From a virus (taxonomy: Duplodnaviria > Heunggongvirae > Uroviricota > Caudoviricetes): a DNA stretch of 12,784 nucleotides. The position numbers and the translations under genes were made by a program. Where the stretch lies: IMG/VR virus record IMGVR_UViG_2648501669_000007; one strand, given 5' to 3'. The notes below the pieces were generated by a model. That model saw only the letters and a list, made by a program, of their open reading frames with translations. It did no database searches and was not told the origin of the DNA. Positions 1 through 12,784 of this stretch are shown here, piece after piece (position 1 is the stretch's first letter; each line of letters opens with the position of its first letter).

Positions 1-113
1 TTTAGTTGACCACAACAAAGTGCATTTATCATCTCCATAAAACAAAACCCGCCGTAGCGAGTTCAGATAAAATAAATCCCCGCGAGTGCGAGGATTGTTA
101 TGTAATATTGGGT

Positions 114-395
114 TTAATCATCTATATGTTTTGTACAGAGAGGGCAAGTATCGTTTCCACCGTACTCGTGATAATAATTTTGCACGGTATCAGTCATTTC
201 TCGCACATTGCAGAATGGGGATTTGTCTTCATTAGACTTATAAACCTTCATGGAATATTTGTATGCCGACTCTATATCTATACCTTCATCTACATAAACA
301 CCTTCGTGATGTCTGCATGGAGACAAGACACCGGATCTGCACAACATTGATAACGCCCAATCTTTTTGCTCAGACTCTAACTCATTGATACGCAT
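114..395 (-). CDS. ea8.5: Ea8.5 protein (lambda early-left accessory gene), 93 aa
   Basis: Intact 93-aa ORF in track; sequence MRINELESEQKDW... recognised as lambda Ea8.5; position relative to ea22 as in lambda. Confidence 0.88.
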   Translation of the reverse strand: MRINELESEQKDWALSMLCRSGVLSPCRHHEGVYVDEGIDIESAYKYSMKVYKSNEDKSPFCNVREMTDTVQNYYHEYGGNDTCPLCTKHIDD

Positions 396-586
396 TTATA
401 AACTCCTTGCAATGTATGTCGTTTCAGCTAAACGGTATCAGCAATGTTTATGTAAAGAAACAGTAAGATAATACTCAACCCGATGTTTGAGTACGGTCAT
501 CATCTGACACTACAGACTCTGGCATCGCTGTGAAGACGACGCGAAATTCAGCATTTTCACAAGCGTTATCTTTTACAAAACCGATC

Positions 587-1135
587 TCACTCTCCTTTGA
601 TGCAAATGCCAGCGTCAGACATCATATGCAGATACTCACCTGCATCCTGAACCCATTGACCTCCAACCCCGTAATAGCGATGCGTAGTGATGTCGATAGT
701 TACTAACGGGTCTTGTTCGATTAACTGCCGCAGAAACTCTTCCAGGTCACCAGTGCAGTGCTTGATAACAGGAGTCTTCCCAGGATGGCGAACAACAAGA
801 AACTGGTTTCCGTCTTCACGGACTTCGTTGCTTTCCAGTTTAGCAATACGCTTACTCCCATCCGAGATAACACCTTCGTAATACTCACGCTGCTCGTTGA
901 GTTTTGATTTTGCTGTTTCAAGCTCAACACGCAGTTTCCCTACTGTTAGCGCAATATCCTCGTTCTCCTAGTCGCGGCGTTTGATGTATTGCTGGTTTCT
1001 TTCCCGTTCATCCAGCAGTTCCAGCACAATCGATGGTGTTACCAATTCATGGAAAAGGTCTGCGTCAAATCCCCAGTCGTCATGCATTGCCTGCTCTGCC
1101 GCTTCACGCAGTGCCTGAGAGTTAATTTCGCTCAC
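587..1135 (-). pseudogene. ea22: ea22 homolog, 182 codons, interrupted by in-frame TAG at codon 56
   Basis: GTG start at 1133-1135 overlapping orf73 stop; frame runs 182 codons to TGA at 587-589; codon 56 (968-970) reads TAG, so no long ORF appears in the track; flanking residues ...IKRRD*ENEDIALTVGKLRVE... recalled as lambda Ea22. Confidence 0.8.
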
Positions 1136-1353
1136 TTCGAACCTCTCTGTTTACTGATAAGTTCCAGATCCTCCTGGCAACTTGCACAAGTCCGACAACC
1201 CTGAACGGCCAAGCGTCTTCGTTCATCTATCGGATCGCCACACTCACAACAATGAGTGGCAGATATAGCCTGGTGGTTCAGACGGCGCATTTTTATTGCT
1301 GTGTTGCGCTGTAATTCTTCAATTTCTGATGCTGAATCAATGATGTCTGCCAT
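1132..1353 (-). CDS. 73-aa TraR/DksA-like C4 zinc-finger protein (lambda orf73 equivalent)
   Basis: Intact 73-aa ORF; CxxC-(17)-CxxC motif (CCECGDPIDERRRLAVQGCRTCASC) typical of TraR/DksA family; stop overlaps ea22 start. Confidence 0.8.
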   Translation of the reverse strand: MADIIDSASEIEELQRNTAIKMRRLNHQAISATHCCECGDPIDERRRLAVQGCRTCASCQEDLELISKQRGSK

Positions 1354-1408
1354 CTTTCATTAATCCCTGAATTGTTGGTTAATACGCTTGAGGGTGAATG
1401 CGAATAAT

Positions 1409-1429
1409 AAAAAAGGAGCCTGTAGCTCC
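1409..1429 (-). terminator. Intrinsic terminator-like hairpin on the leftward transcript (possibly a lambda tL terminator)
   Basis: Stem GGAGC/GCTCC (1415-1419 / 1425-1429) followed on the minus strand by a T6 run (plus-strand A6 at 1409-1414); lies between two leftward ORFs. Confidence 0.5.
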
Positions 1430-1451
1430 ATGATGATTTTGTTTTTCATGC

Positions 1452-1733
1452 TCACCGTTCCTTAAAGACGCCGTTTAACATGCCGATCGCCAGGCTTAAA
1501 TGAGTCGGTGTGAATCCCATCAGCGTTACCGTTTCGCGGTGCTTCTTCAGTACGCTACGGCAAATGTCATCGACGTTTTTATCCGGAAACTGCTGTCTGA
1601 CTTTTTTGATTTCAGAATTAGCCTGACGGGCAATACTGCGAAGGGCGTTTTCTTGCTGAGGTGTCATTGAACAAGTCCCATGTCGGCAAGCATAAGCACA
1701 CAGAATATGAAGCCCGCTGCCAGAAAAATGCAT
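1452..1733 (-). CDS. Hypothetical small protein in the lambda orf61 region (93 aa from the first ATG; 71 aa if started at MTPQQ, 1452-1667)
   Basis: ORF in track; non-repetitive composition; the MTPQQ start at 1665-1667 overlaps the stop of an upstream 27-codon ORF (ATGA); an in-frame TGA at 1734-1736 separates it from an ATG at 1761-1763. Confidence 0.5.
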   Translation of the reverse strand: MHFSGSGLHILCAYACRHGTCSMTPQQENALRSIARQANSEIKKVRQQFPDKNVDDICRSVLKKHRETVTLMGFTPTHLSLAIGMLNGVFKER

Positions 1734-1747
1734 TCAGTGGTTGTCAT
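1664..1747 (-). CDS. Possible 27-aa hydrophobic peptide (MTTTECIFLAAGFIFCVLMLADMGLVQ)
   Basis: ATG at 1745-1747 overlaps the orf63 stop (ATGA) and its stop overlaps the next ATG (ATGA), suggesting translational coupling; strongly hydrophobic; not in the track because it is short. Confidence 0.3.
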   Translation of the reverse strand: MTTTECIFLAAGFIFCVLMLADMGLVQ

Positions 1748-1935
1748 ACCTGGTCTCTCTCATCTGCTTCTGCTTTCGCCACCATCATTTCCAGCTTTTG
1801 TGAAAGGGATGCGGCTAACGTATGAAATTCTTCGTCTGTTTCTACTGGTATTGGCACAAACCTGACTCCAATTTGAGCGAGGCTATGTGCCATCTCAATG
1901 CTCGTTCTTAACTCAACAGGAGATGCTTTGTGCAT
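1744..1935 (-). CDS. Lambda orf63-like protein, 63 aa
   Basis: Intact 63-aa ORF in track; size and position match lambda orf63 between orf60a and the orf61 region. Confidence 0.8.
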   Translation of the reverse strand: MHKASPVELRTSIEMAHSLAQIGVRFVPIPVETDEEFHTLAASLSQKLEMMVAKAEADERDQV

Positions 1936-2090
1936 ACAGCTCCCCGTTTATTATTTATCTCCTCAGCCAGCCGCTGTGCTTTCAGTGGATTTCGGGTAAC
2001 AGAAAGGCCGGGAAATACCCAGCCTCGCTTTGTAACGGAGTAGACGAAAGTGATCGCACCTACCCGGATATTATCGTGAGGATGCTTCAT
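1908..2090 (-). CDS. Lambda orf60a-like protein, 60 aa
   Basis: Track ORF 1908-2096; start chosen at the second ATG (2088-2090), which overlaps the exo stop as ATGA and gives 60 aa. Confidence 0.7.
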
Positions 2091-2767
2091 CGCCATTGTT
2101 CCCCAAATACAAAACCAATTTCAGCCAGTGCCTCGTCCATTTTTTCGATGAACTCCGGCACCATCTCGTCAAAACTCGCCATGTAATTTTCATCCCGCTC
2201 AACCACGACATAATGCAGGCCTTCACGCTTCATTCGTGGGTCATAGTTGGCAAAGTACCAGGCATCTTTTCGTGTCACCCACATGCTGTACTGCACCTGG
2301 GCCATGTAAGCCGACTTTATGGCCTCGAAACCACCGAGCCGGAACTTCATGAAATCCCGGGAGGTAAACGGGCATTTCAGCTCAAGGCCGTTGCCGTCAC
2401 TGCATAAACCATCGGGAGAGCAGGCGGTGCGCATACTTTCGTCGCGATAGATGATCGGGGATTCAGTAACATTCACGCCGGAAGTAAACTCAAACAGGGC
2501 TCTGGCGTCGTTCTCGTACTGTTTTCCCCAGGCCAGTGCTTTAGCGTTAACTTCCGGAGCCACACCGGTGCAAACCTCGGCAAGCAGGGTGTGGAAGTAG
2601 GACATTTTCATGTCAGGCCACTTCTTTCCTGAGCGGGGCTTTGCTATCACGTTGTGAACTTCTGAAGCGGTGATGACGCCGAGCCGTAATTTGTGCCATG
2701 CATCATCCCCCTGTTCGACAGCTCTCACGTCGATCCCGGTACGCTGCAGGATAATGTCCGGTGTCAT
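2087..2767 (-). CDS. exo: Lambda exonuclease (Red alpha), 226 aa
   Basis: Intact 226-aa [43 protein letters not shown]... recognised as lambda Exo; ATGA overlap with bet. Confidence 0.97.
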
Positions 2768-3549
2768 GCTGCCACCTTCTGCTCAGTGGCTTTCTGTTTC
2801 AGGAATCCGAGAGCTTTCACTGCTTCGGCCTGTGTCAGTTCTGACGATGCGCGAATGTCGCGGCGAAATATCTGGGAACAGAGCGGCAATAAGTCGTCAT
2901 CCCATGTTTTATCCAGGGCAATCAGCAGAGTGTTAATCTCCTGCATGGTTTCATCGTTAACCGGAGTGATGTCGCGTTCCGGCTGACGTTCTGCAGTGTA
3001 TGCGGTATTTTCGACAATGCGCTCGGCTTCATCCTTGTCATAGATACCAGCAAATCCGAAGGCCAGACGGGCACACTGAATCATGGCTTTATGACGTAAC
3101 ATCCGTTTGGGATGCGACTGCCACGGCCCCGTGATTTCTCTGCCTTCGCGGGTTTTGAATGGTTCGCGGCGGCATTCATCCATCCACTCGGTAACGCAGA
3201 TCGGATGATTGCGGTCCTTGCGGTAAATCCGGCATGTGCAGGATTCATTGTCCTGCTCAAAGTCCATACCATCAAACTGCTGGTTTTCATTGATGATGCG
3301 GGACCAGCCATCAACGCCCACCACCGGAACGATGCCGTTCTGCTTATCAGGGAAGGCGTAAATTTCTTTCGTCCACGGATTAAGGCCGTACTGGTTGGCG
3401 ACGATCAACAATGCGATGAACTGCGCATCGCTGGCATCACCTTTAAATGCCGTCTGGCGAAGAGTGGTGATCAGTTCCTGTGGGTCGACAGAATCCATGC
3501 CGACACGTTCAGCCAGCTTCCCTGCCAGCGTTGCGAGTGCTGTACTCAT
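2764..3549 (-). CDS. bet: Bet single-strand annealing protein (Red beta), 261 aa
   Basis: Intact 261-aa [40 protein letters not shown]... recognised as lambda Bet. Confidence 0.97.
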
Positions 3550-3554
3550 CCGTT

Positions 3555-3972
3555 TTATACCTCTGAATCAATATCAACCTGGTGGTGAGCAATGGTTTCA
3601 ACCATGTACCGGATGTGTTCTGCCATGCGCTCCTGAAACTCAACATCGTCATCAAACGCACGGGTAATGGCTTTTTTGCTGGCCCCGTGGCGTTGCAAAT
3701 GATCGATGCATAGCGATTCAAACAGGTGCTGGGGCAGGCCTTTTTCCATGTCGTCTGCCAGTTCTGCCTCTTTCTCTTCACGGGCGATCTGCTGGTAGTG
3801 ACGCGCCCAGCTCTGAGCCTCAAGACGATCCTAAATGTAATAAGCGTTCATGGCTGAACTCCTGAAAATGGCTGTGAAAATATCGCCCGCGAAATGCCAG
3901 GCTGATTAGGAAAACAGGAAAGGGGGTTAGTGAATGCTTTTGCTTGATCTCAGTTTCTGTATTAATATCCAT
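3555..3972 (-). pseudogene. gam: gam (RecBCD inhibitor) homolog, disrupted: TAG at codon 7 of the GamS frame and the long-form start out of frame
   Basis: Track holds only the C-terminal 64 aa ([26 protein letters not shown]...). Upstream in the same frame: ATG 3849-3851, MNAYYI, then TAG at 3831-3833. The [13 protein letters not shown] at 3970-3972 is 121 nt upstream, so it is in a different frame. Confidence 0.85.
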
Positions 3973-4070
3973 TTTTTATAAGCGTCGACGGCCTCACGAA
4001 ACATCTTTTCATCGCCAATAAAAGTGGCGATAGTGAATTTAGTCTGGATAGCCATAATTGTTTGATCCAT
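3927..4070 (-). CDS. kil: Kil (host cell-division inhibitor), 47 aa
   Basis: [47 protein letters not shown] forms the C-terminal 47 aa of track ORF 3927-4196; start overlaps the cIII 3' end as in lambda. Confidence 0.85.
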
Positions 4071-4203
4071 TTTTCGGGACTCCTGGCTGATTAAGTATGT
4101 CGATAAGGCGTTTCCATCCGTCACGTAATTTACGGGTGATTCGTTCAAGTAAAGATTCGGAAGGGCAGCCAGCAACAGGCCACCCTGCAATGGCATATTG
4201 CAT
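4039..4203 (-). CDS. cIII: CIII (FtsH inhibitor that stabilises CII), 54 aa
   Basis: Hand translation from ATG 4201-4203 gives [54 protein letters not shown] then TAA; too short for the track. Confidence 0.9.
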   Translation of the reverse strand: MQYAIAGWPVAGCPSESLLERITRKLRDGWKRLIDILNQPGVPKNGSNNYGYPD

Positions 4204-4275
4204 GGTGTGCTCCTTATTTATACATAACGAAAAACGCCTCGAGTGAAGCGTAATTGGTATGCGGTAACGCCGCGC

Positions 4276-4644
4276 TCAGGCGGCTTTGATAGTCATATCA
4301 TCTGGATCAAATATTCCTGATGTATCGATATCGGTAATTCTTATTCCTTCGCTACCATCCATTGGAGGCCATCCTTCCTGACCATTTCCATCATTCCAGT
4401 CGAACTCACACACAACACCATATGCATTTAATTCGCTTGAAATTGCTATAAGCAGAGCATGTTGCGCCAGCATGATTAATACAGCATTTAATACAGAGCC
4501 GTGTTTATTGAGTCGGTATTCAGAGTCTGACCAGAAATTATTAATCTGGTGAAGTTTTTCCTCTGTCATTACGTCATGGTCGATTTCAATTTCTATTGAT
4601 GCTTTCCAGTCGTAATCAATGATGTATTTTTTGATGTTTGACAT
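4276..4644 (-). CDS. ea10: Ea10 protein, 122 aa
   Basis: Intact 122-aa ORF; size and position between cIII and ral match lambda ea10. Confidence 0.85.
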   Translation of the reverse strand: MSNIKKYIIDYDWKASIEIEIDHDVMTEEKLHQINNFWSDSEYRLNKHGSVLNAVLIMLAQHALLIAISSELNAYGVVCEFDWNDGNGQEGWPPMDGSEGIRITDIDTSGIFDPDDMTIKAA

Positions 4645-4662
4645 CTATTCATATCCTCATAG

Positions 4663-4690
4663 ATAAAAAATCGCCCTCACACTGGAGGGC
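4663..4690 (-). terminator. Intrinsic terminator-like hairpin on the leftward transcript, between ral and ea10
   Basis: Stem GCCCTC/GAGGGC (4673-4678 / 4685-4690) followed on the minus strand by a T6 run (plus-strand A6 at 4665-4670). Confidence 0.45.
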
Positions 4691-4826
4691 AAAGAAGATT
4701 TCCAATAATCAGAACAAGTCGGCTCCTGTTTAGTTACGAGCGACATTGCTCCGTGTATTCACTCGTTGGAATGAATACACAGTGCAGTGTTTATTCTGTT
4801 ATTTATGCCAAAAATAAAGGCCACTA

Positions 4827-5027
4827 TCAGGCAGCTTTGTTGTTCTGTTTACCAAGTTCTCTGGCAATCATTGCCGTCGTTCGTATTGCCCATTTATCGA
4901 CATATTTCCCATCTTCCATTACAGGAAACATTTCTTCAGGCTTAACCATGCATTCCGATTGCAGCTTGCATCCATTGCATCGCTTGAATTGTCCACACCA
5001 TTGATTTTTATCAATAGTCGTAGTCAT
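4827..5027 (-). CDS. ral: Ral restriction-alleviation protein, 66 aa
   Basis: Intact 66-aa ORF MTTTIDKNQWCGQFKRCNGCKLQSECMVKPEEMF... recognised as lambda Ral. Confidence 0.9.
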   Translation of the reverse strand: MTTTIDKNQWCGQFKRCNGCKLQSECMVKPEEMFPVMEDGKYVDKWAIRTTAMIARELGKQNNKAA

Positions 5028-5097
5028 ACGGATAGTCCTGGTATTGTTCCATCACATCCTGAGGATGCTCTTCGAACTCTTCAAATTCTTCTTCCAT
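5011..5097 (-). CDS. orf28-like acidic peptide (MEEEFEEFEEHPQDVMEQYQDYPYDYDY), 28 aa
   Basis: Hand translation from ATG 5095-5097 to TGA 5011-5013; overlaps the ral start as lambda orf28 does; below track threshold. Confidence 0.55.
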   Translation of the reverse strand: MEEEFEEFEEHPQDVMEQYQDYPYDYDY

Positions 5098-5221
5098 ATA
5101 TCACCTTAAATAGTGGATTGCGGTAGTAAAGATTGTGCCTGTCTTTTAACCACATCAGGCTCGGTGGTTCTCGTGTACCCCTACAGCGAGAAATCGGATA
5201 AACTATTACAACCCCTACAGT

Positions 5222-5776
5222 TTGATGAGTATAGAAATGGATCCACTCGTTATTCTCGGACGAGTGTTCAGTAATGAACCTCTGGAGAGAACCATGTATA
5301 TGATCGTTATCTGGGTTGGACTTCTGCTTTTAAGCCCAGATAACTGGCCTGAATATGTTAATGAGAGAATCGGTATTCCTCATGTGTGGCATGTTTTCGT
5401 CTTTGCTCTTGCATTTTCGCTAGCAATTAATGTGCATCGATTATCAGCTATTGCCAGCGCCAGATATAAGCGATTTAAGCTAAGAAAACGCATTAAGATG
5501 CAAAACGATAAAGTGCGATCAGTAATTCAAAACCTTACAGAAGAGCAATCTATGGTTTTGTGCGCAGCCCTTAATGAAGGCAGGAAGTATGTGGTTACAT
5601 CAAAACAATTCCCATACATTAGTGAGTTGATTGAGCTTGGTGTGTTGAACAAAACTTTTTCCCGATGGAATGGGAAGCATATATTATTCCCTATTGAGGA
5701 TATTTACTGGACTGAATTAGTTGCCAGCTATGATCCATATAATATTGAGATAAAGCCAAGGCCAATATCTAAGTAA
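5222..5776 (+). CDS. sieB: SieB superinfection-exclusion protein (membrane protein), 184 aa
   Basis: Intact 184-aa ORF with hydrophobic segments; only rightward gene in the pL operon region; ends one base before the N stop codon, as in lambda. Confidence 0.88.
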   Translation: MMSIEMDPLVILGRVFSNEPLERTMYMIVIWVGLLLLSPDNWPEYVNERIGIPHVWHVFVFALAFSLAINVHRLSAIASARYKRFKLRKRIKMQNDKVRSVIQNLTEEQSMVLCAALNEGRKYVVTSKQFPYISELIELGVLNKTFSRWNGKHILFPIEDIYWTELVASYDPYNIEIKPRPISK

Positions 5777-6100
5777 CTAGATAAGAGGAATCGATTTTCC
5801 CTTAATTTTCTGGCGTCCACTGCATGTTATGCCGCGTTCGCCAGGCTTGCTGTACCATGTGCGCTGATTCTTGCGCTCAATACGTTGCAGGTTGCTTTCA
5901 ATCTGTTTGTGGTATTCAGCCAGCACTGTAAGGTCTATCGGATTTAGTGCGCTTTCTACTCGTGATTTCGGTTTGCGATTCAGCGAGAGAATAGGGCGGT
6001 TAACTGGTTTTGCGCTTACCCCAACCAACAGGGGATTTGCTGCTTTCCATTGAGCCTGTTTCTCTGCGCGACGTTCGCGGCGGCGTGTTTGTGCATCCAT
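5777..6100 (-). CDS. N: N transcription antiterminator, 107 aa
   Basis: Track ORF 5777-6178 contains MDAQTRRRERRAEKQAQWKAANPLLVGVSAKPVNRP... (arginine-rich motif); start assigned to ATG 6098-6100. Confidence 0.95.
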   Translation of the reverse strand: MDAQTRRRERRAEKQAQWKAANPLLVGVSAKPVNRPILSLNRKPKSRVESALNPIDLTVLAEYHKQIESNLQRIERKNQRTWYSKPGERGITCSGRQKIKGKSIPLI

Positions 6101-6258
6101 CTGGATTCTTCTGTCAGTTAGCTTTGGTGGTGTGTGGCAGTTGTAGTCCTGAACGAAAACCCCCCGCGATTGGCACATTGGCAGCTAATCCGGAATCGCA
6201 CTTACGGCCAATGCTTCGTTTCGTATCACACACCCCAAAGCCTTCTGCTTTGAATGCT

Positions 6259-6289
6259 GCCCTTCTTCAGGGCTTAATTTTTAAGAGCG
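6259..6289 (-). promoter_or_regulatory. nutL (boxB hairpin plus boxA) N-utilisation site
   Basis: Minus strand reads CGCTCTTA (boxA, 6282-6289) and GCCCTGAAGAAGGGC (boxB, 6259-6273), downstream of the pL start. Confidence 0.8.
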
Positions 6290-6319
6290 TCACCTTCATG
6301 GTGGTCAGTGCGTCCTGCT

Positions 6320-6391
6320 GATGTGCTCAGTATCACCGCCAGTGGTATTTATGTCAACACCGCCAGAGATAATTTATCACCGCAGATGGTT
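6320..6391 (-). promoter_or_regulatory. pL promoter with operators OL1, OL2 and OL3
   Basis: OL1 TATCACCGCCAGTGGTA 6331-6347, OL2 CAACACCGCCAGAGATA 6355-6371, OL3 TATCACCGCAGATGGTT 6375-6391; minus-strand -35 TTGACA (6352-6357) and -10 GATACT (6329-6334). Confidence 0.9.
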
Positions 6392-6540
6392 ATCTGTATG
6401 TTTTTTATATGAATTTATTTTTTGCAGGGGGGCATTGTTTGGTAGGTGAGAGATCTGAATTGCTATGTTTAGTGAGTTGTATCTATTTATTTTTCAATAA
6501 ATACAATTGGTTATGTGTTTTGGGGGCGATCGTGAGGCAA

Positions 6541-6566
6541 AGAAAACCCGGCGCTGAGGCCGGGTT
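6541..6566 (-). terminator. Intrinsic terminator after rexB (tImm-like)
   Basis: GC-rich hairpin AACCCGGC-CTCAGC-GCCGGGTT on the minus strand followed by TTTCTTT, immediately past the rexB stop. Confidence 0.6.
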
Positions 6567-6999
6567 ATTCTTGTTCTCTGGTCAAATTATATAGTTGGAA
6601 AACAAGGATGCATATATGAATGAACGATGCAGAGGCAATGCCGATGGCGATAGTGGGTATCATGTAGCCGCTTATGCTGGAAAGAAGCAATAACCCGCAG
6701 AAAAACAAAGCTCCAAGCTCAACAAAACTAAGGGCATAGACAATAACTACCGATGTCATATACCCATACTCTCTAATCTTGGCCAGTCGGCGCGTTCTGC
6801 TTCCGATTAGAAACGTCAAGGCAGCAATCAGGATTGCAATCATGGTTCCTGCATATGATGACAATGTCGCCCCAAGACCATCTCTATGAGCTGAAAAAGA
6901 AACACCAGGAATGTAGTGGCGGAAAAGGAGATAGCAAATGCTTACGATAACGTAAGGAATTATTACTATGTAAACACCAGGCATGATTCTGTTCCGCAT
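6565..6999 (-). CDS. rexB: RexB (membrane ion-channel component of Rex abortive infection/exclusion), 144 aa
   Basis: Intact 144-aa highly hydrophobic ORF MRNRIMPGVYIVIIPYVIVSICYLLF... recognised as lambda RexB. Confidence 0.95.
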   Translation of the reverse strand: MRNRIMPGVYIVIIPYVIVSICYLLFRHYIPGVSFSAHRDGLGATLSSYAGTMIAILIAALTFLIGSRTRRLAKIREYGYMTSVVIVYALSFVELGALFFCGLLLLSSISGYMIPTIAIGIASASFIHICILVFQLYNLTREQE

Positions 7000-7014
7000 A
7001 ATTACTCCTGATAA

Positions 7015-7854
7015 TTAATCCTTAACTTTGCCCACCTGCCTTTTAAAACATTCCAGTATATCACTTTTCATTCTTGCGTAGCAATATGCCATCTCTTCAG
7101 CTATCTCAGCATTGGTGACCTTGTTCAGAGGCGCTGAGAGATGGCCTTTTTCTGATAGATAATGTTCTGTTAAAATATCTCCGGCCTCATCTTTTGCCCG
7201 CAGGCTAATGTCTGAAAATTGAGGTGACGGGTTAAAAATAATATCCTTGGCAACCTTTTTTATATCCCTTTTAAATTTTGGCTTAATGACTATATCCAAT
7301 GAGTCAAAAAGCTCCCCTTCAATATCTGTTGCCCCTAAGACCTTTAATATATCGCCAAATACAGGTAGCTTGGCTTCTACCTTCACCGTTGTTCGGCCGA
7401 TGAAATGCATATGCATAACATCGTCTTTGGTGGTTCCCCTCATCAGTGGCTCTATCTGAACGCGCTCTCCACTGCTTAATGACATTCCTTTCCCGATTAA
7501 AAAATCTGTCAGATCGGATGTGGTCGGCCCGAAAACAGTTCTGGCAAAACCAATGGTGTCGCCTTCAACAAACAAAAAAGATGGGAATCCCAATGATTCG
7601 TCATCTGCGAGGCTGTTCTTAATATCTTCAACTGAAGCTTTAGAGCGATTTATCTTCTGAACCAGACTCTTGTCATTTGTTTTGGTAAAGAGAAAAGTTT
7701 TTCCATCGATTTTATGAATATACAAATAATTGGAGCCAACCTGCAGGTGATGATTATCAGCCAGCAGAGAATTAAGGAAAACAGACAGGTTTATTGAGCG
7801 CTTATCTTTCCCTTTATTTTTGCTGCGGTAAGTCGCATAAAAACCATTCTTCAT
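7015..7854 (-). CDS. rexA: RexA (sensor/activator component of Rex exclusion), 279 aa
   Basis: Intact 279-aa ORF MKNGFYATYRSKNKGKDKRSINLSVFLNSLLADNHHLQ... recognised as lambda RexA; sits in the cI-rexA-rexB operon. Confidence 0.95.
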   Translation of the reverse strand: MKNGFYATYRSKNKGKDKRSINLSVFLNSLLADNHHLQVGSNYLYIHKIDGKTFLFTKTNDKSLVQKINRSKASVEDIKNSLADDESLGFPSFLFVEGDTIGFARTVFGPTTSDLTDFLIGKGMSLSSGERVQIEPLMRGTTKDDVMHMHFIGRTTVKVEAKLPVFGDILKVLGATDIEGELFDSLDIVIKPKFKRDIKKVAKDIIFNPSPQFSDISLRAKDEAGDILTEHYLSEKGHLSAPLNKVTNAEIAEEMAYCYARMKSDILECFKRQVGKVKD

Positions 7855-7966
7855 AATTCAATCCATTTACTATGTTATGTTCTGAGGGGAGTGAAAATTC
7901 CCCTAATTCGATGAAGATTCTTGCTCAATTGTTATCAGCTATGCGCCGACCAGAACACCTTGCCGA

Positions 7967-8683
<717 letters not shown>

Positions 8684-8690
8684 TTAAATC

Positions 8691-8764
8691 TATCACCGCA
8701 AGGGATAAATATCTAACACCGTGCGTGTTGACTATTTTACCTCTGGCGGTGATAATGGTTGCAT
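8691..8764. promoter_or_regulatory. Right operator region: OR3, OR2, OR1 with divergent pRM and pR promoters
   Basis: OR3 TATCACCGCAAGGGATA 8691-8707, OR2 TAACACCGTGCGTGTTG 8714-8730, OR1 TACCTCTGGCGGTGATA 8738-8754; pR -35 TTGACT 8728-8733 and -10 GATAAT 8751-8756. Confidence 0.92.
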
Positions 8765-8771
8765 GTACTAA

Positions 8772-8981
<210 letters not shown>

Positions 8982-8988
8982 ATAACCC

Positions 8989-9020
8989 CGCTCTTACACA
9001 TTCCAGCCCTGAAAAAGGGC
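8989..9020 (+). promoter_or_regulatory. nutR (boxA CGCTCTTACA plus boxB hairpin GCCCTGAAAAAGGGC)
   Basis: boxA at 8989-8998 and boxB at 9006-9020 just downstream of cro; the rho-dependent tR1 region follows. Confidence 0.8.
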
Positions 9021-9074
9021 ATCAAATTAAACCACACCTATGGTGTATGCATTTATTTGCATACATTCAATCAA

Positions 9075-9121
9075 TTGTTATCTAAGGAAATACTTACATA
9101 TGGTTCGTGCAAACAAACGCA
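9075..9121 (-). promoter_or_regulatory. pRE (CII-activated promoter for repressor establishment)
   Basis: CII recognition repeat TTGC-N6-TTGC on the minus strand within the first cII codons (about 9105-9118), oriented leftward. Confidence 0.6.
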
Positions 9122-9393
9122 ACGAGGCTCTACGAATCGAGAGTGCGTTGCTTAACAAAATCGCAATGCTTGGAACTGAGAAGACAGCGGAAGCTGTGGG
9201 CGTTGATAAGTCGCAGATCAGCAGGTGGAAGAGGGACTGGATTCCAAAGTTCTCAATGCTGCTTGCTGTTCTTGAATGGGGGGTCGTTGACGACGACATG
9301 GCTCGATTGGCGCGACAAGTTGCTGCGATTCTCACCAATAAAAAACGCCCGGCGGCAACCGAGCGTTCTGAACAAATCCAGATGGAGTTCTGA
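9100..9393 (+). CDS. cII: CII transcriptional activator, 97 aa
   Basis: Track ORF 9040-9393 contains MVRANKRNEALRIESALLNKIAMLGTEKTAEAVGVDKSQISRWKRDWIPKFSMLLAVLEWG...; start assigned to ATG 9100-9102. Confidence 0.95.
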   Translation: MVRANKRNEALRIESALLNKIAMLGTEKTAEAVGVDKSQISRWKRDWIPKFSMLLAVLEWGVVDDDMARLARQVAAILTNKKRPAATERSEQIQMEF

Positions 9394-9415
9394 GGTCATT
9401 ACTGGATCTATCAAC
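9339..9415 (-). ncRNA. oop: Probable oop antisense RNA overlapping the cII 3' end (coordinates approximate)
   Basis: Minus-strand hairpin plus T6 (GTTGCCGCCGGGCGTTTTTT) at about 9339-9358 inside the cII 3' end; placement follows known lambda organisation. Confidence 0.5.
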
Positions 9416-9425
9416 AGGAGTCATT

Positions 9426-10325
9426 ATGACAAATACAGCAAAAATACTCAACTTCGGCAGAGGTAACTTTGCCGGACAGGAGCGTAATGTGGCAGATCTC
9501 GATGATGGTTACGCCAGACTATCAAATATGCTGCTTGAGGCTTATTCGGGCGCAGATCTGACCAAGCGACAGTTTAAAGTGCTGCTTGCCATTCTGCGTA
9601 AAACCTATGGGTGGAATAAACCAATGGACAGAATCACCGATTCTCAACTTAGCGAGATTACAAAGTTACCTGTCAAACGGTGCAATGAAGCCAAGTTAGA
9701 ACTCGTCAGAATGAATATTATCAAGCAGCAAGGCGGCATGTTTGGACCAAATAAAAACATCTCAGAATGGTGCATCCCTCAAAACGAGGGAAAATCCCCT
9801 AAAACGAGGGATAAAACATCCCTCAAATTGGGGGATTGCTATCCCTCAAAACAGGGGGACACAAAAGACACTATTACAAAAGAAAAAAGAAAAGATTATT
9901 CGTCAGAGAATTCTGGCGAATCCTCTGACCAGCCAGAAAACGACCTTTCTGTGGTGAAACCGGATGCTGCAATTCAGAGCGGCAGCAAGTGGGGGACAGC
10001 AGAAGACCTGACCGCCGCAGAGTGGATGTTTGACATGGTGAAGACTATCGCACCATCAGCCAGAAAACCGAATTTTGCTGGGTGGGCTAACGATATCCGC
10101 CTGATGCGTGAACGTGACGGACGTAACCACCGCGACATGTGTGTGCTGTTCCGCTGGGCATGCCAGGACAACTTCTGGTCCGGTAACGTGCTGAGCCCGG
10201 CCAAACTCCGCGATAAGTGGACCCAACTCGAAATCAACCGTAACAAGCAACAGGCAGGCGTGACAGCCAGCAAACCAAAACTCGACCTGACAAACACAGA
10301 CTGGATTTACGGGGTGGATCTATGA
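9426..10325 (+). CDS. O: O replication initiator, 299 aa
   Basis: Intact 299-aa ORF MTNTAKILNFGRGNFAGQERNVADLDDGYARLSNMLLEAYSGADLTKRQF... recognised as lambda O; contains the ori iterons. Confidence 0.97.
   Translation: MTNTAKILNFGRGNFAGQERNVADLDDGYARLSNMLLEAYSGADLTKRQFKVLLAILRKTYGWNKPMDRITDSQLSEITKLPVKRCNEAKLELVRMNIIKQQGGMFGPNKNISEWCIPQNEGKSPKTRDKTSLKLGDCYPSKQGDTKDTITKEKRKDYSSENSGESSDQPENDLSVVKPDAAIQSGSKWGTAEDLTAAEWMFDMVKTIAPSARKPNFAGWANDIRLMRERDGRNHRDMCVLFRWACQDNFWSGNVLSPAKLRDKWTQLEINRNKQQAGVTASKPKLDLTNTDWIYGVDL
9774..9900. repeat. ori-lambda: four about 19-bp iterons (O binding sites) followed by an AT-rich unwinding region
   Basis: Direct repeats ATCCCTCAAAACGAGGG, ATCCCCTAAAACGAGGG, ACATCCCTCAAATTGGGGG, ATCCCTCAAAACAGGGGG at 9774-9860, then an A-rich tract 9861-9900, all inside O. 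Confidence 0.88.
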
Positions 10326-11023
10326 AAAACATCGCCGCACAGATGGTTAACTTTGACCGTGAGCAGATGCGTCGGATCGCCAACAACATGCCGGAACAGT
10401 ACGACGAAAAGCCGCAGGTACAGCAGGTAGCGCAGATCATCAACGGTGTGTTCAGCCAGTTACTGGCAACTTTCCCGGCGAGCCTGGCTAACCGTGACCA
10501 GAACGAAGTGAACGAAATCCGTCGCCAGTGGGTTCTGGCTTTTCGGGAAAACGGGATCACCACGATGGAACAGGTTAACGCAGGAATGCGCGTAGCCCGT
10601 CGGCAGAATCGACCATTTCTGCCATCACCCGGGCAGTTTGTTGCATGGTGCCGGGAAGAAGCATCCGTTACCGCCGGACTGCCAAACGTCAGCGAGCTGG
10701 TTGATATGGTTTACGAGTATTGCCGGAAGCGAGGCCTGTATCCGGATGCGGAGTCTTATCCGTGGAAATCAAACGCGCACTACTGGCTGGTTACCAACCT
10801 GTATCAGAACATGCGGGCCAATGCGCTTACTGATGCGGAATTACGCCGTAAGGCCGCAGATGAGCTTGTCCATATGACTGCGAGAATTAACCGTGGTGAG
10901 GCGATCCCTGAACCAGTAAAACAACTTCCTGTTATGGGCGGTAGACCTCTAAATCGTGCACAGGCTCTGGCGAAGATCGCAGAAATTAAAGCTAAGTTCG
11001 GACTGAAAGGAGCAAGTGTATGA
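10322..11023 (+). CDS. P: P replication protein (DnaB helicase loader), 233 aa
   Basis: Intact 233-aa ORF MKNIAAQMVNFDREQMRRIANNMPEQYDEKPQVQQVAQIINGVF...; ATGA overlap with the O stop. Confidence 0.97.
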   Translation: MKNIAAQMVNFDREQMRRIANNMPEQYDEKPQVQQVAQIINGVFSQLLATFPASLANRDQNEVNEIRRQWVLAFRENGITTMEQVNAGMRVARRQNRPFLPSPGQFVAWCREEASVTAGLPNVSELVDMVYEYCRKRGLYPDAESYPWKSNAHYWLVTNLYQNMRANALTDAELRRKAADELVHMTARINRGEAIPEPVKQLPVMGGRPLNRAQALAKIAEIKAKFGLKGASV

Positions 11024-11310
11024 CGGGCAAAGAGGCAATTATTCATTACCTGGGGACGCATAATAGCTTCTGTGCGCCGGACGTTGCCGCGCTAACAGGC
11101 GCAACAGTAACCAGCATAAATCAGGCCGCGGCTAAAATGGCACGGGCAGGTCTTCTGGTTATCGAAGGTAAGGTCTGGCGAACGGTGTATTACCGGTTTG
11201 CTACCAGGGAAGAACGGGAAGGAAAGATGAGCACGAACCTGATTTTTAAGGAGTGTCGCCAGAGTGCCGCGATGAAACGGGTATTGGCGGTATATAGAGT
11301 TAAAAGATGA
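11020..11310 (+). CDS. ren: Ren protein (relieves Rex exclusion), 96 aa
   Basis: Intact 96-aa ORF MTGKEAIIHYLGTHNSFCAPDVAALTGATVTSINQAAAKMARAGLLVIEG...; ATGA overlap with the P stop. Confidence 0.9.
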   Translation: MTGKEAIIHYLGTHNSFCAPDVAALTGATVTSINQAAAKMARAGLLVIEGKVWRTVYYRFATREEREGKMSTNLIFKECRQSAAMKRVLAVYRVKR

Positions 11311-11335
11311 CCATCTATATTACTGAGCTAATAAC

Positions 11336-11366
11336 AGGCCTGCTGGTAATCGCAGGCCTTTTTATT
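11336..11366 (+). terminator. Intrinsic terminator (tR2-like) between ren and ninB
   Basis: Stem AGGCCTGC/GCAGGCCT (11336-11343 / 11352-11359) followed by TTTTTATTT. Confidence 0.7.
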
Positions 11367-11383
11367 TGGGGGAGAGGGAAGTC

Positions 11384-11824
11384 ATGAAAAAACTAACCTT
11401 TGAAATTCGATCTCCAGCACATCAGCAAAACGCTATTCACGCAGTACAGCAAATCCTTCCAGACCCAACCAAACCAATCGTAGTAACCATTCAGGAACGC
11501 AACCGTAGCTTAGACCAAAACAGGAAGCTATGGGCCTGCTTAGGTGACGTCTCTCGTCAGGTTGAATGGCATGGTCGCTGGCTGGATGCAGAAAGCTGGA
11601 AGTGTGTGTTTACCGCAGCATTAAAGCAGCAGGATGTTGTTCCTAACCTTGCCGGGAATGGCTTTGTGGTAATAGGCCAGTCAACCAGCAGGATGCGTGT
11701 AGGCGAATTTGCGGAGCTATTAGAGCTTATACAGGCATTCGGTACAGAGCGTGGCGTTAAGTGGTCAGACGAAGCGAGACTGGCTCTGGAGTGGAAAGCG
11801 AGATGGGGAGATCGGGCTGCATGA
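11384..11824 (+). CDS. ninB: NinB (Orf recombination mediator), 146 aa
   Basis: Track ORF 11366-11824; start assigned to ATG 11384 after RBS GGAGAGGGAA; MKKLTFEIRSPAHQQNAIHAVQQILPDPTKPIVVTIQERNRSLDQNRKLW... recognised as lambda NinB. Confidence 0.9.
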   Translation: MKKLTFEIRSPAHQQNAIHAVQQILPDPTKPIVVTIQERNRSLDQNRKLWACLGDVSRQVEWHGRWLDAESWKCVFTAALKQQDVVPNLAGNGFVVIGQSTSRMRVGEFAELLELIQAFGTERGVKWSDEARLALEWKARWGDRAA

Positions 11825-12348
11825 CTATCAAATCAAATACGCCAGCACACGACAAGGACTGCTGGCAAACGCCGCTTTGGCTTTTTGATGCACTGGATAT
11901 TGAGTTTGGATTCTGGCTGGATTCGGCAGCGAGCGACAAAAATGCTCTGTGTGCTCACTGGCTAACTGAGGCCGACGACGCGCTCAATTCTGAGTGGGTA
12001 AGCCACGGTGCAATCTGGAATAACCCACCGTACAGCAATATCAGGCCGTGGGTGGAAAAAGCCGCTGAGCAGTGCATACAACAGCGACAGACGGTAGTTA
12101 TGCTTGTGCCAGAGGATATGTCAGTCGGATGGTTCAGCAAGGCTCTGGAGAGTGTCGACGAAGTTCGCATTATCACTGATGGACGGATTAATTTTATCGA
12201 ACCATCGACAGGGTTGGAGAAGAAGGGAAACAGCAAAGGCTCCATGCTGCTGATTTGGCGACCGTTCATCAGTCCTCGACGGATGTTTACTACCGTATCC
12301 AAAGCGGCATTGATGGCGATCGGGCAGGGCGTCAGGAGGGCGGCATGA
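11821..12348 (+). CDS. Phage-type DNA N6-adenine methyltransferase (Dam-like, orphan), 175 aa
   Basis: ATG 11821 overlaps the ninB stop (ATGA); catalytic NPPY(S) motif (WNNPPYSN) and N-terminal [24 protein letters not shown] typical of the phage Dam family; occupies the slot of lambda ninC/ninD. Confidence 0.85.
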
Positions 12349-12414
12349 GGCGACAGCGACGAAGTTTCACCGACATCATCTGCGAAAACTGCAAATACCT
12401 TCCAACGAAACGCT
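12345..12414 (+). pseudogene. ninE: ninE 5' fragment (23 codons) truncated by IS1 insertion
   Basis: ATG 12345 overlaps the methyltransferase stop; [23 protein letters not shown] matches the recalled lambda NinE N-terminus; the frame is cut at 12414/12415 by the IS1 terminal inverted repeat. Confidence 0.7.
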
Positions 12415-12784
12415 GGTGATGCTGCCAACTTACTGATTTAGTGTATGATGGTGTTTTTGAGGTGCTCCAGTGGCTTCTGTTTCTATCAGCTGTCCCTCCT
12501 GTTCAGCTACTGACGGGGTGGTGCGTAACGGCAAAAGCACCGCCGGACATCAGCGCTATCTCTGCTCTCACTGCCGTAAAACATGGCAACTGCAGTTCAC
12601 TTACACCGCTTCTCAACCCGGTACGCACCAGAAAATCATTGATATGGCCATGAATGGCGTTGGATGCCCGGCAACACCCCGCCTTATGGGCCTTGGCCTC
12701 AACACGATTTTACGTCACCTAAAAAACTCACGGCCCCAGTCGGTAACCCCCCCCATACACCCGCGCACTGACGACATCGTCAGC
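12415..12784 (+). mobile_element. IS1-family insertion sequence, left end and first about 370 bp, running off the window edge
   Basis: Terminal inverted repeat GGTGATGCTGCCAACTTACTGAT at 12415; InsA coding sequence and the A6C frameshift motif (CTAAAAAAC) present. Confidence 0.9.
12470..12784 (+). CDS. insA: IS1 InsA (partial in window; frame lacks the expected stop)
   Basis: GTG start at 12470; translation [66 protein letters not shown]... matches InsA, then diverges near 12640-12784 with an apparent extra base before the canonical stop. Confidence 0.6.

Follow-up and report, generated by a model that had tools for sequence, protein, structure and literature searches.

An amber codon at a former Dcm site in the ea22 gene of a lambda-type prophage region

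Results

The prophage region and its ea22 gene

We analysed a 12,784-nt stretch of viral DNA (Caudoviricetes; IMG/VR record IMGVR_UViG_2648501669_000007), which is called the window throughout. Alignment with bacteriophage lambda (NC_001416) showed that window positions 18-11824 are the counterpart of lambda 29278-41084, with 98 substitutions and two 1-bp indels. The divergence is patchy, reaching about 2.5% in window 1200-4660 (orf73 to ea10, including exo-bet-gam) and amounting to two differences within window 4660-10930, which contains N, rexAB, cI, cro, cII and O. Apart from an amber codon in gam, the genes for immunity, replication and recombination are intact. On the left, the lambda homology ends at lambda 29278, just within orf55, where the end of an IS3-family (ISEc52-like) element takes over. 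Towards the right end, ninC is replaced by a gene encoding a 195-aa Dam-family DNA N6-adenine methyltransferase (window 11761-12348, plus strand; PF05869, 217.8 bits), and a short return of lambda homology at 12352-12413 lies just before an IS1 element. No complete E. coli genome provided a better match to the whole window than lambda, and the closest relatives of the ea22 region are 99.6% identical to it. Because of this divergence, the Dam-family methylase in place of ninC and the IS boundaries, we regard the window as a natural lambda-immunity prophage region between IS elements and not as laboratory lambda. The features needed for the description of ea22 are listed below.

1-17, no strand assigned: terminus of an IS3-family (ISEc52-like) element, left boundary of the lambda-like DNA
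114-395, minus strand: ea8.5, which follows ea22 in the leftward operon; intact, with one substitution (S2R)
587-1135, minus strand: ea22 frame, orthologous to the lambda gene; 182 codons plus stop, with 546 of 549 nt identical to lambda 29847-30395
590-967, minus strand: 126 codons past the internal stop, in an open frame by translation, for the remaining coiled coil and the entire C-terminal domain
602-604, minus strand: codon 178, CGC to TGC (R178C), 3' of the stop and within the region of the conserved terminal R/K-G-E motif
686-688, minus strand: codon 150, ATT to ACT (I150T), 3' of the stop
967-971, no strand assigned: former Dcm site, CCAGG on the wild-type coding strand and CTAGG here, the changed base being window 970
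968-970, minus strand: amber TAG at ea22 codon 56, CAG (Gln) in lambda, in the context YIKRRD*ENEDIA
971-1135, minus strand: 55 codons that are still translatable, for the N-terminal segment and the first part of the coiled coil
1132-1353, minus strand: orf73 (TraR/DksA-type zinc finger; PF01258, 35.8 bits), intact, its TGA overlapping the ea22 GTG (GTGA)
12416-12784, plus strand: IS1 element, right boundary of the lambda-like DNA

The ea22 gene is placed in the exo-xis region, downstream of the TraR-like orf73 and upstream of ea8.5, which starts about 190 nt further on. Minus-strand translation reproduced the frame proposed in the initial annotation of this sequence, with 182 codons from a GTG start (1133-1135) to a TGA stop (587-589) as in lambda, and translation of 587-1135 showed that the TAG at codon 56 is its sole interruption. 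The lambda coordinates which that annotation had given (29847-30395, complement) match those of NC_001416, and the glutamine that it had placed at codon 56 is indeed encoded there, by CAG. Three of the 549 bases differ from lambda (99.5% identity), and they account for the codon 56 change from CAG to TAG and for I150T and R178C. In an orthologue of such high identity, the TAG is a specific derived difference and not a chance pattern. Lambda ea22 (lambdap83, NP_040612), the gene of a pro-lysogenic protein of the exo-xis region, shares with the window gene the position between orf73 and ea8.5, the GTG overlap and the TGA, but differs at codons 56, 150 and 178, and without suppression 55 of the 182 codons of the window gene are translatable.

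The first in-frame ATG, GTG or TTG past the TAG is at Met170/171, too late for a sizeable restart product. The 55-aa fragment, on the other hand, would still be translated, because the ea22 start overlaps the stop of orf73. An overlapping gene was rejected as an explanation of the stop, as no plus-strand ORF of at least 40 aa covers 968-970. Against the Ead_Ea22 profile (PF13935, cutoff 27), the lambda protein scored 100.9 bits and the 55-aa fragment of the window 54.6 bits, the latter matching profile positions 1-87 of 139. The uninterrupted frame for N-terminal segment, coiled coil and C-terminal domain is broken in the window by the TAG at codon 56, and the gene can be classified as a disrupted member of the Ead/Ea22 family, that is, a pseudogene allele.

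The same amber codon in other sequences

An exact-sequence look-up of the 55-aa product, combined with k-mer searches, revealed the same TAG in seven other public sequences (L003, L004, L005, L006, L007, MB53 and 2013C-3342). L006 (GCA_000754845.1) is the same element as the window; the two agree throughout ea22, I150T and R178C included, and have the gam amber in common. The other TAG carriers are without I150T. In L004 (GCA_002206965.1), L005 (ERR119547), L007 (SRR27315006) and the complete genome of MB53, the TAG is the sole difference from lambda ea22. The MB53 gene bears the PGAP note 'internal stop', and gene callers predict exactly the 55-aa product in other assemblies.

These carriers bear on whether the TAG could be a sequencing or assembly artefact of the window. 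Base-calling noise does exist at its right end: the 16 mismatches to IS1A are all confined to the final 115 nt (12669-12784), 12 being apparently spurious C calls, a pattern suggestive of poor sequence quality at the contig end and not of real variation. The TAG is located about 11.7 kb from this end, outside any homopolymer; the L006 allele is identical down to both downstream missense changes, and four more lambda-type assemblies from different runs and hosts, one of them a complete genome, carry the same codon. Since L006 and six other sequences all have the TAG, a base-calling error is very unlikely, and we consider an artefact of any kind scarcely credible.

The chromosomal ybhC gene next to attB is of the same allele in MB53 and L007, and of another in L004, about 1.4% different and nearly identical to that of strain 203740, whose prophage has CAG. 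The lambda-type TAG allele is therefore present in at least two host backgrounds. Several of the carriers are badly degraded prophages, the MB53 copy being part of a heavily IS-disrupted one, whereas the L004 prophage is apparently intact and complete.

Some of the sequences retrieved did not hold up as disrupted alleles. Six of the ten apparent carriers returned by the look-up (L008-L013) were rejected, as they are wild-type contigs that end at ...GACCA; the CAG/CAA polymorphism at this codon branches assembly graphs, which explains contig breaks after GACCA in six unrelated assemblies. The ea22 gene of strain 203740 was also rejected as a second disrupted allele: flagged by PGAP as 'pseudo; incomplete; missing C-terminus' (L002 12934-13188), it has 182 uninterrupted codons and encodes a protein identical to that of lambda, with Gln56. 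The same 'pseudo' label is attached to the intact Ead/Ea22-family genes of L015 and L016, and it appears to be an annotation artefact of a mosaic family.

The junction with the IS3-family element has its counterpart in L006 at 11111-11209. A similar junction in MB53 was rejected as a sign of common descent, since the insertions in the window and in MB53 lie at different positions in orf55 and are therefore independent. Between kil and the repressor, L004 and L005 have cargo encoding a 535-aa SIR2_2-domain protein (L004 4808-6415), and the prophage of strain 203740 has a DUF4411 gene and an ImmA/IrrE peptidase gene at that place (L002 16713-18361). These cargoes of related attB prophages are probably defence modules at the lambda rex/imm position.

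The amber codon lies on a Dcm site

Deamination of 5-methylcytosine yields thymine, and Dcm is near-universal in E. coli. Dcm is the CCWGG methylase of E. coli K-12 and methylates the second C of this sequence (PMC4924334), and amber hotspots of lacI are found at the second C of CCAGG (Coulondre et al. 1978, reviewed in PMC12606429). The wild-type context of ea22 codon 56 is GA-CCAGG-AG, and the altered base is the inner C of the CCWGG site, the change being from GACCAGGAG to GACTAGGAG. A C-to-T transition at the inner cytosine of the Dcm site, from CCAGG to CTAGG, created the TAG, and this is the change to be expected of spontaneous deamination of 5-methylcytosine, as in the lacI hotspots; we infer that the codon 56 site was methylated in the ancestral host. 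The likeness to the lacI amber hotspots A6, A15 and A34 (Coulondre, Miller et al. 1978) extends to the G:C to A:T change at the second C, to the CAG to TAG conversion and to the recurrence of the change, which here affects the same site in different genes. Unlike those hotspots, which came from laboratory selection, the ea22 allele comes from natural prophage genes across wild isolates.

Lambda ea22 offers 73 single substitutions that would create a stop codon, 15 of which are transitions. There are three CCWGG sites in the gene, and the codon 56 change from CAG to TAG is the sole nonsense target on a 5-methylcytosine position. The alternative is that the TAG is real and arose by ordinary random substitution, its Dcm context and its recurrence being due to coincidence or to the recombinational spread of a single event. 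That one of the three sites can yield a stop at all gives a prior chance between 1/15 (transitions) and 1/73 (all substitutions) for a random nonsense change to fall on it, which leaves this alternative some room. Across the lambda-homologous part of the window, C>T-type changes occur at 2 of 50 5-methylcytosine positions versus 33 of 5,391 other C:G positions, an enrichment that is marginal (one-sided Fisher p = 0.04) and assumes that lambda is ancestral.

The only other change from lambda to the window on the inner C of a CCWGG site is at window 1212 in orf73 (CCAGG to CCAAG, plus strand); beside it, the change at 1208 is accompanied by a V-to-A replacement in the TraR-like protein.

The methylated cytosine on the complementary strand of the codon 56 site pairs with the third codon base, and its deamination product is CAA, a synonymous codon. 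We found CAA at codon 56 in 27 IMG/VR contigs (L139-L165), where it removes the Dcm site. The two methylated positions of a single site are thus both polymorphic, which argues against a random substitution.

Recurrence in differently built Ead/Ea22 genes

The same C-to-T change at the homologous CCAGG was detected in two further Ead/Ea22 genes of different construction, in L003 and in the STEC strain 2013C-3342, which have only the central segment in common with lambda ea22. The L003 gene, from IMG/VR, has 225 codons. Its nearest relative, found in strain 2012EL-2448, has CAG at the site, and the two genes differ at 2 of 678 bases; about 66 nt around the TAG of L003 are identical to the lambda type. 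The 2013C-3342 gene represents a third architecture. Its frame is open past the TAG to the IRIKGE terminus of the family, and its sequence begins to diverge from that of lambda ea22 at 14 nt past the TAG.

For comparison, we used as control targets the other C-to-T nonsense sites of the conserved segment, namely codon 48 (CAG to TAG) and codon 49 (CAA to TAA). Neither control change occurred in 5,426 E. coli genomes or in IMG/VR. The Dcm-site TAG thus compares with the controls as 2 versus 0 in the E. coli genomes and 1 versus 0 in IMG/VR, counts that are small.

The spread of a single event is opposed by the three gene backgrounds, by the CAG of the nearest relative of the L003 gene and by the early divergence of the 2013C-3342 gene, and a random origin by the absence of matches at both control sites. 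In favour of spread, members of the family are very similar around the TAG, and such conservation would favour patch transfer. The low event counts and the gam amber, which demonstrates that nonsense changes outside Dcm sites occur in this element too, likewise speak for random substitution. Independent mutation seems the more economical reading; a short recombination patch is a less probable explanation of L003, and the independence of 2013C-3342 is suggested by its early downstream divergence alone. Taken together, these data make random substitution or the spread of one event unlikely, and a Dcm-hotspot origin of the TAG is well supported by the site and its recurrence, although the event counts are small. 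The ea22 amber can be placed among the Dcm-site amber hotspots already known, and no new mechanism is required.

Frequency of the allele

The frequency of the allele was estimated with a 35-mer centred on the codon 56 site in 5,426 complete E. coli genomes. TAG was found at two places versus CAG at 2,340 places in 1,587 genomes, that is, in about 0.09% of copies, and IMG/VR yielded one contig with TAG versus at least 120 with CAG. The initial annotation had also considered that the reference might have the same TAG; lambda and all 2,340 of these E. coli copies carry CAG. The exact TAG k-mer had no match in the GTDB species-representative genomes or in a scan of JGI metagenomes, and a literature search found no published description of an ea22 codon 56 amber allele. 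The rarity of TAG is consistent with purifying selection. Considered jointly, the rare nonsense codon and the common synonymous CAA suggest that ea22 is under purifying selection in nature.

Amber suppression

The TAG would be silent if the host carried a suppressor (such as a supE-type tRNA-Gln with a CUA anticodon, which would restore the glutamine), or if the element went back to an amber mutant of laboratory origin that had been maintained in a suppressor strain. In support of this alternative, the ambers in ea22 and gam are both CAG to TAG, so that a supE-type tRNA would insert glutamine and correct each exactly, and supE alleles do exist among sequenced E. coli. We searched for them with the sequence of the supE tRNA-Gln (CUA anticodon), which was confirmed by exact matches in C600, DH5alpha, DH1 and similar strains. 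Exact matches were obtained in 155 of 5,424 E. coli records, and among the matches listed, all 60 supE-bearing records were K-12 laboratory derivatives. The carrier MB53 has the wild-type CTG anticodon in both glnV and glnX and no supE in these two genes. The window contains no tRNA gene, and a phage-borne suppressor was therefore rejected. CAG to TAG is, moreover, the commonest transition route to an amber codon, and the diverged exo-bet-gam region, the Dam-family methylase and the IS boundaries are at odds with a laboratory origin. The host of the window itself presumably had no suppressor, and a silent amber is improbable overall.

A comparison can also be made with laboratory ambers of lambda such as Sam7, Pam80 and gam am210, which are grown on supE or supF hosts. 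Like them, the window has a TAG in place of a sense codon, and a second one in gam; unlike them, it is a diverged, IS-bounded natural prophage region, and the carrier MB53 is without a suppressor in glnV and glnX. To our knowledge, no ea22 amber mutant has been described.

Predicted consequence for Ea22

Ea22 has 182 residues, is tetrameric and pro-lysogenic, and has a coiled coil between a short N-terminal segment and a C-terminal domain, the latter being inactive alone (PMC10834534). The Ead_Ea22 profile spans residues 2-101 of the lambda protein, and PDB 8DSX covers the C-terminal domain, residues 102-182. Without an amber suppressor in the host, translation would end after 55 residues, and the product would stop midway through the Ead_Ea22 coiled coil and contain none of the C-terminal dimerisation domain. 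As the 55-aa product keeps profile positions 1-87 of 139 and no C-terminal domain, a null allele is expected, and on this domain map Ea22 has most probably lost its pro-lysogenic function; the fragment could nevertheless retain or gain some activity. Polarity on the genes further downstream would not be expected under N antitermination, and a resident prophage should be maintained equally well without ea22.

Deletion of ea22 in lambda shortens the latent period from 35 to 30 min and raises the burst from 68 to 96, and it reduces lysogens from 48% to 23% at an m.o.i. of 1 (PMC7093339). By analogy, a phage with the TAG is predicted to behave like the deletion mutant.

The two further changes in ea22 past the stop are both non-synonymous, in two events only. 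I150 is a dimer-interface residue of the C-terminal domain (PMC10834534), and R178 falls near the conserved terminal R/K-G-E motif (described in PMC7093339). The addition of I150T and R178C in the window and L006 would fit an order in which the stop came first and drift followed, two changes being all that this order is read from.

The shorter latent period and larger burst also raise the question of whether the truncation was selected, either because loss of Ea22 is advantageous or because the 55-aa coiled-coil fragment has an effect on the Ea22 homologues that co-resident prophages encode. Full-length Ea22 is a tetramer, up to six copies of the segment occur per E. coli genome, and the allele is present in the apparently intact L004 prophage and in at least two host backgrounds. 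Set against this are the very low share of TAG among copies in complete genomes, its absence from the metagenome scan with no sign of spread, and the badly degraded state of several carriers. We consider it highly improbable that selection drove the truncation. Barely more probable, and still a very slim chance, is a broader form in which the recurrent Gln-to-amber change is occasionally favoured, either because N-terminal coiled-coil fragments of 55-100 aa co-assemble with and poison the tetrameric Ea22 of co-resident or superinfecting lambdoid phages or because of a lytic advantage.

The gam amber and other lesions

The second amber codon, also CAG to TAG, is located in gam (window 3831-3833, minus strand), where it replaces Gln7 of the 98-aa protein, or Gln47 in the longer annotated form, and leaves only a 64-aa C-terminal ORF (3555-3749). 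It is common only to the window and L006, and Gam is intact in L004, L005 and L002. Its context, TTCAGG, is not a Dcm site, so that not every lesion here follows the hotspot logic.

Two other candidate lesions were rejected as private to the window. A 1-bp insertion at window 3865, an apparent frameshift in the 138-codon annotation of gam, is also present in L002, L004, L005 and L006. As relatives share it and its position is 5' of the GamS start (Met41), it can be considered a harmless natural variant. Two differences from lambda affect orf61 (minus strand, window ~1601 and ~1736): codon 10 has changed from GGA to TGA, and an A-run is shorter by 1 bp. The TGA is also found in L002, L004-L006, L009, L012 and L013, and since so many natural relatives have it, the lambda orf61 frame is not conserved in the lineage. 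The A-run deletion is private to the window and L006.

The signs of decay in the element comprise the gam amber, the IS1 at 12416, the IS3-family end at 1-17 and the two missense changes past the ea22 stop. The window resembles the pseudogenes of decaying (cryptic) E. coli prophages in that a dispensable accessory gene has acquired a nonsense codon, with lesions nearby and missense changes past the stop. It is unlike decayed cryptic prophages in that its immunity, replication and recombination genes are otherwise intact and the carrier L004 looks complete. For these two reasons, either decay would be at an early stage or the ea22 allele would predate it.

Discussion

Our analysis indicates that the window carries a real, inherited nonsense allele of ea22, produced by a C-to-T change at a Dcm site, and that it is probably a case of ordinary gene decay in a prophage, with a mutational hotspot as the starting point. 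Three features favour this reading: ea22 is an accessory gene that can be dispensed with, IS elements bound the region, and gam has an amber codon as well.

For annotation, ea22 of the window should be recorded as a pseudogene or an amber allele and not as an intact gene, and the same applies to gam. If the Gln-to-amber change were occasionally favoured after all, the Dcm site would be a built-in, methylation-dependent mutational switch for the bias between lysis and lysogeny. On the preferred reading of hotspot-seeded decay, the locus is a natural illustration of a textbook mechanism: a Dcm CCAGG in the conserved Ead/Ea22 segment, at which three genes of different construction show one and the same change from Gln to amber. 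The purifying selection on ea22 that is suggested by the rarity of nonsense alleles fits the pro-lysogenic role reported for its product.
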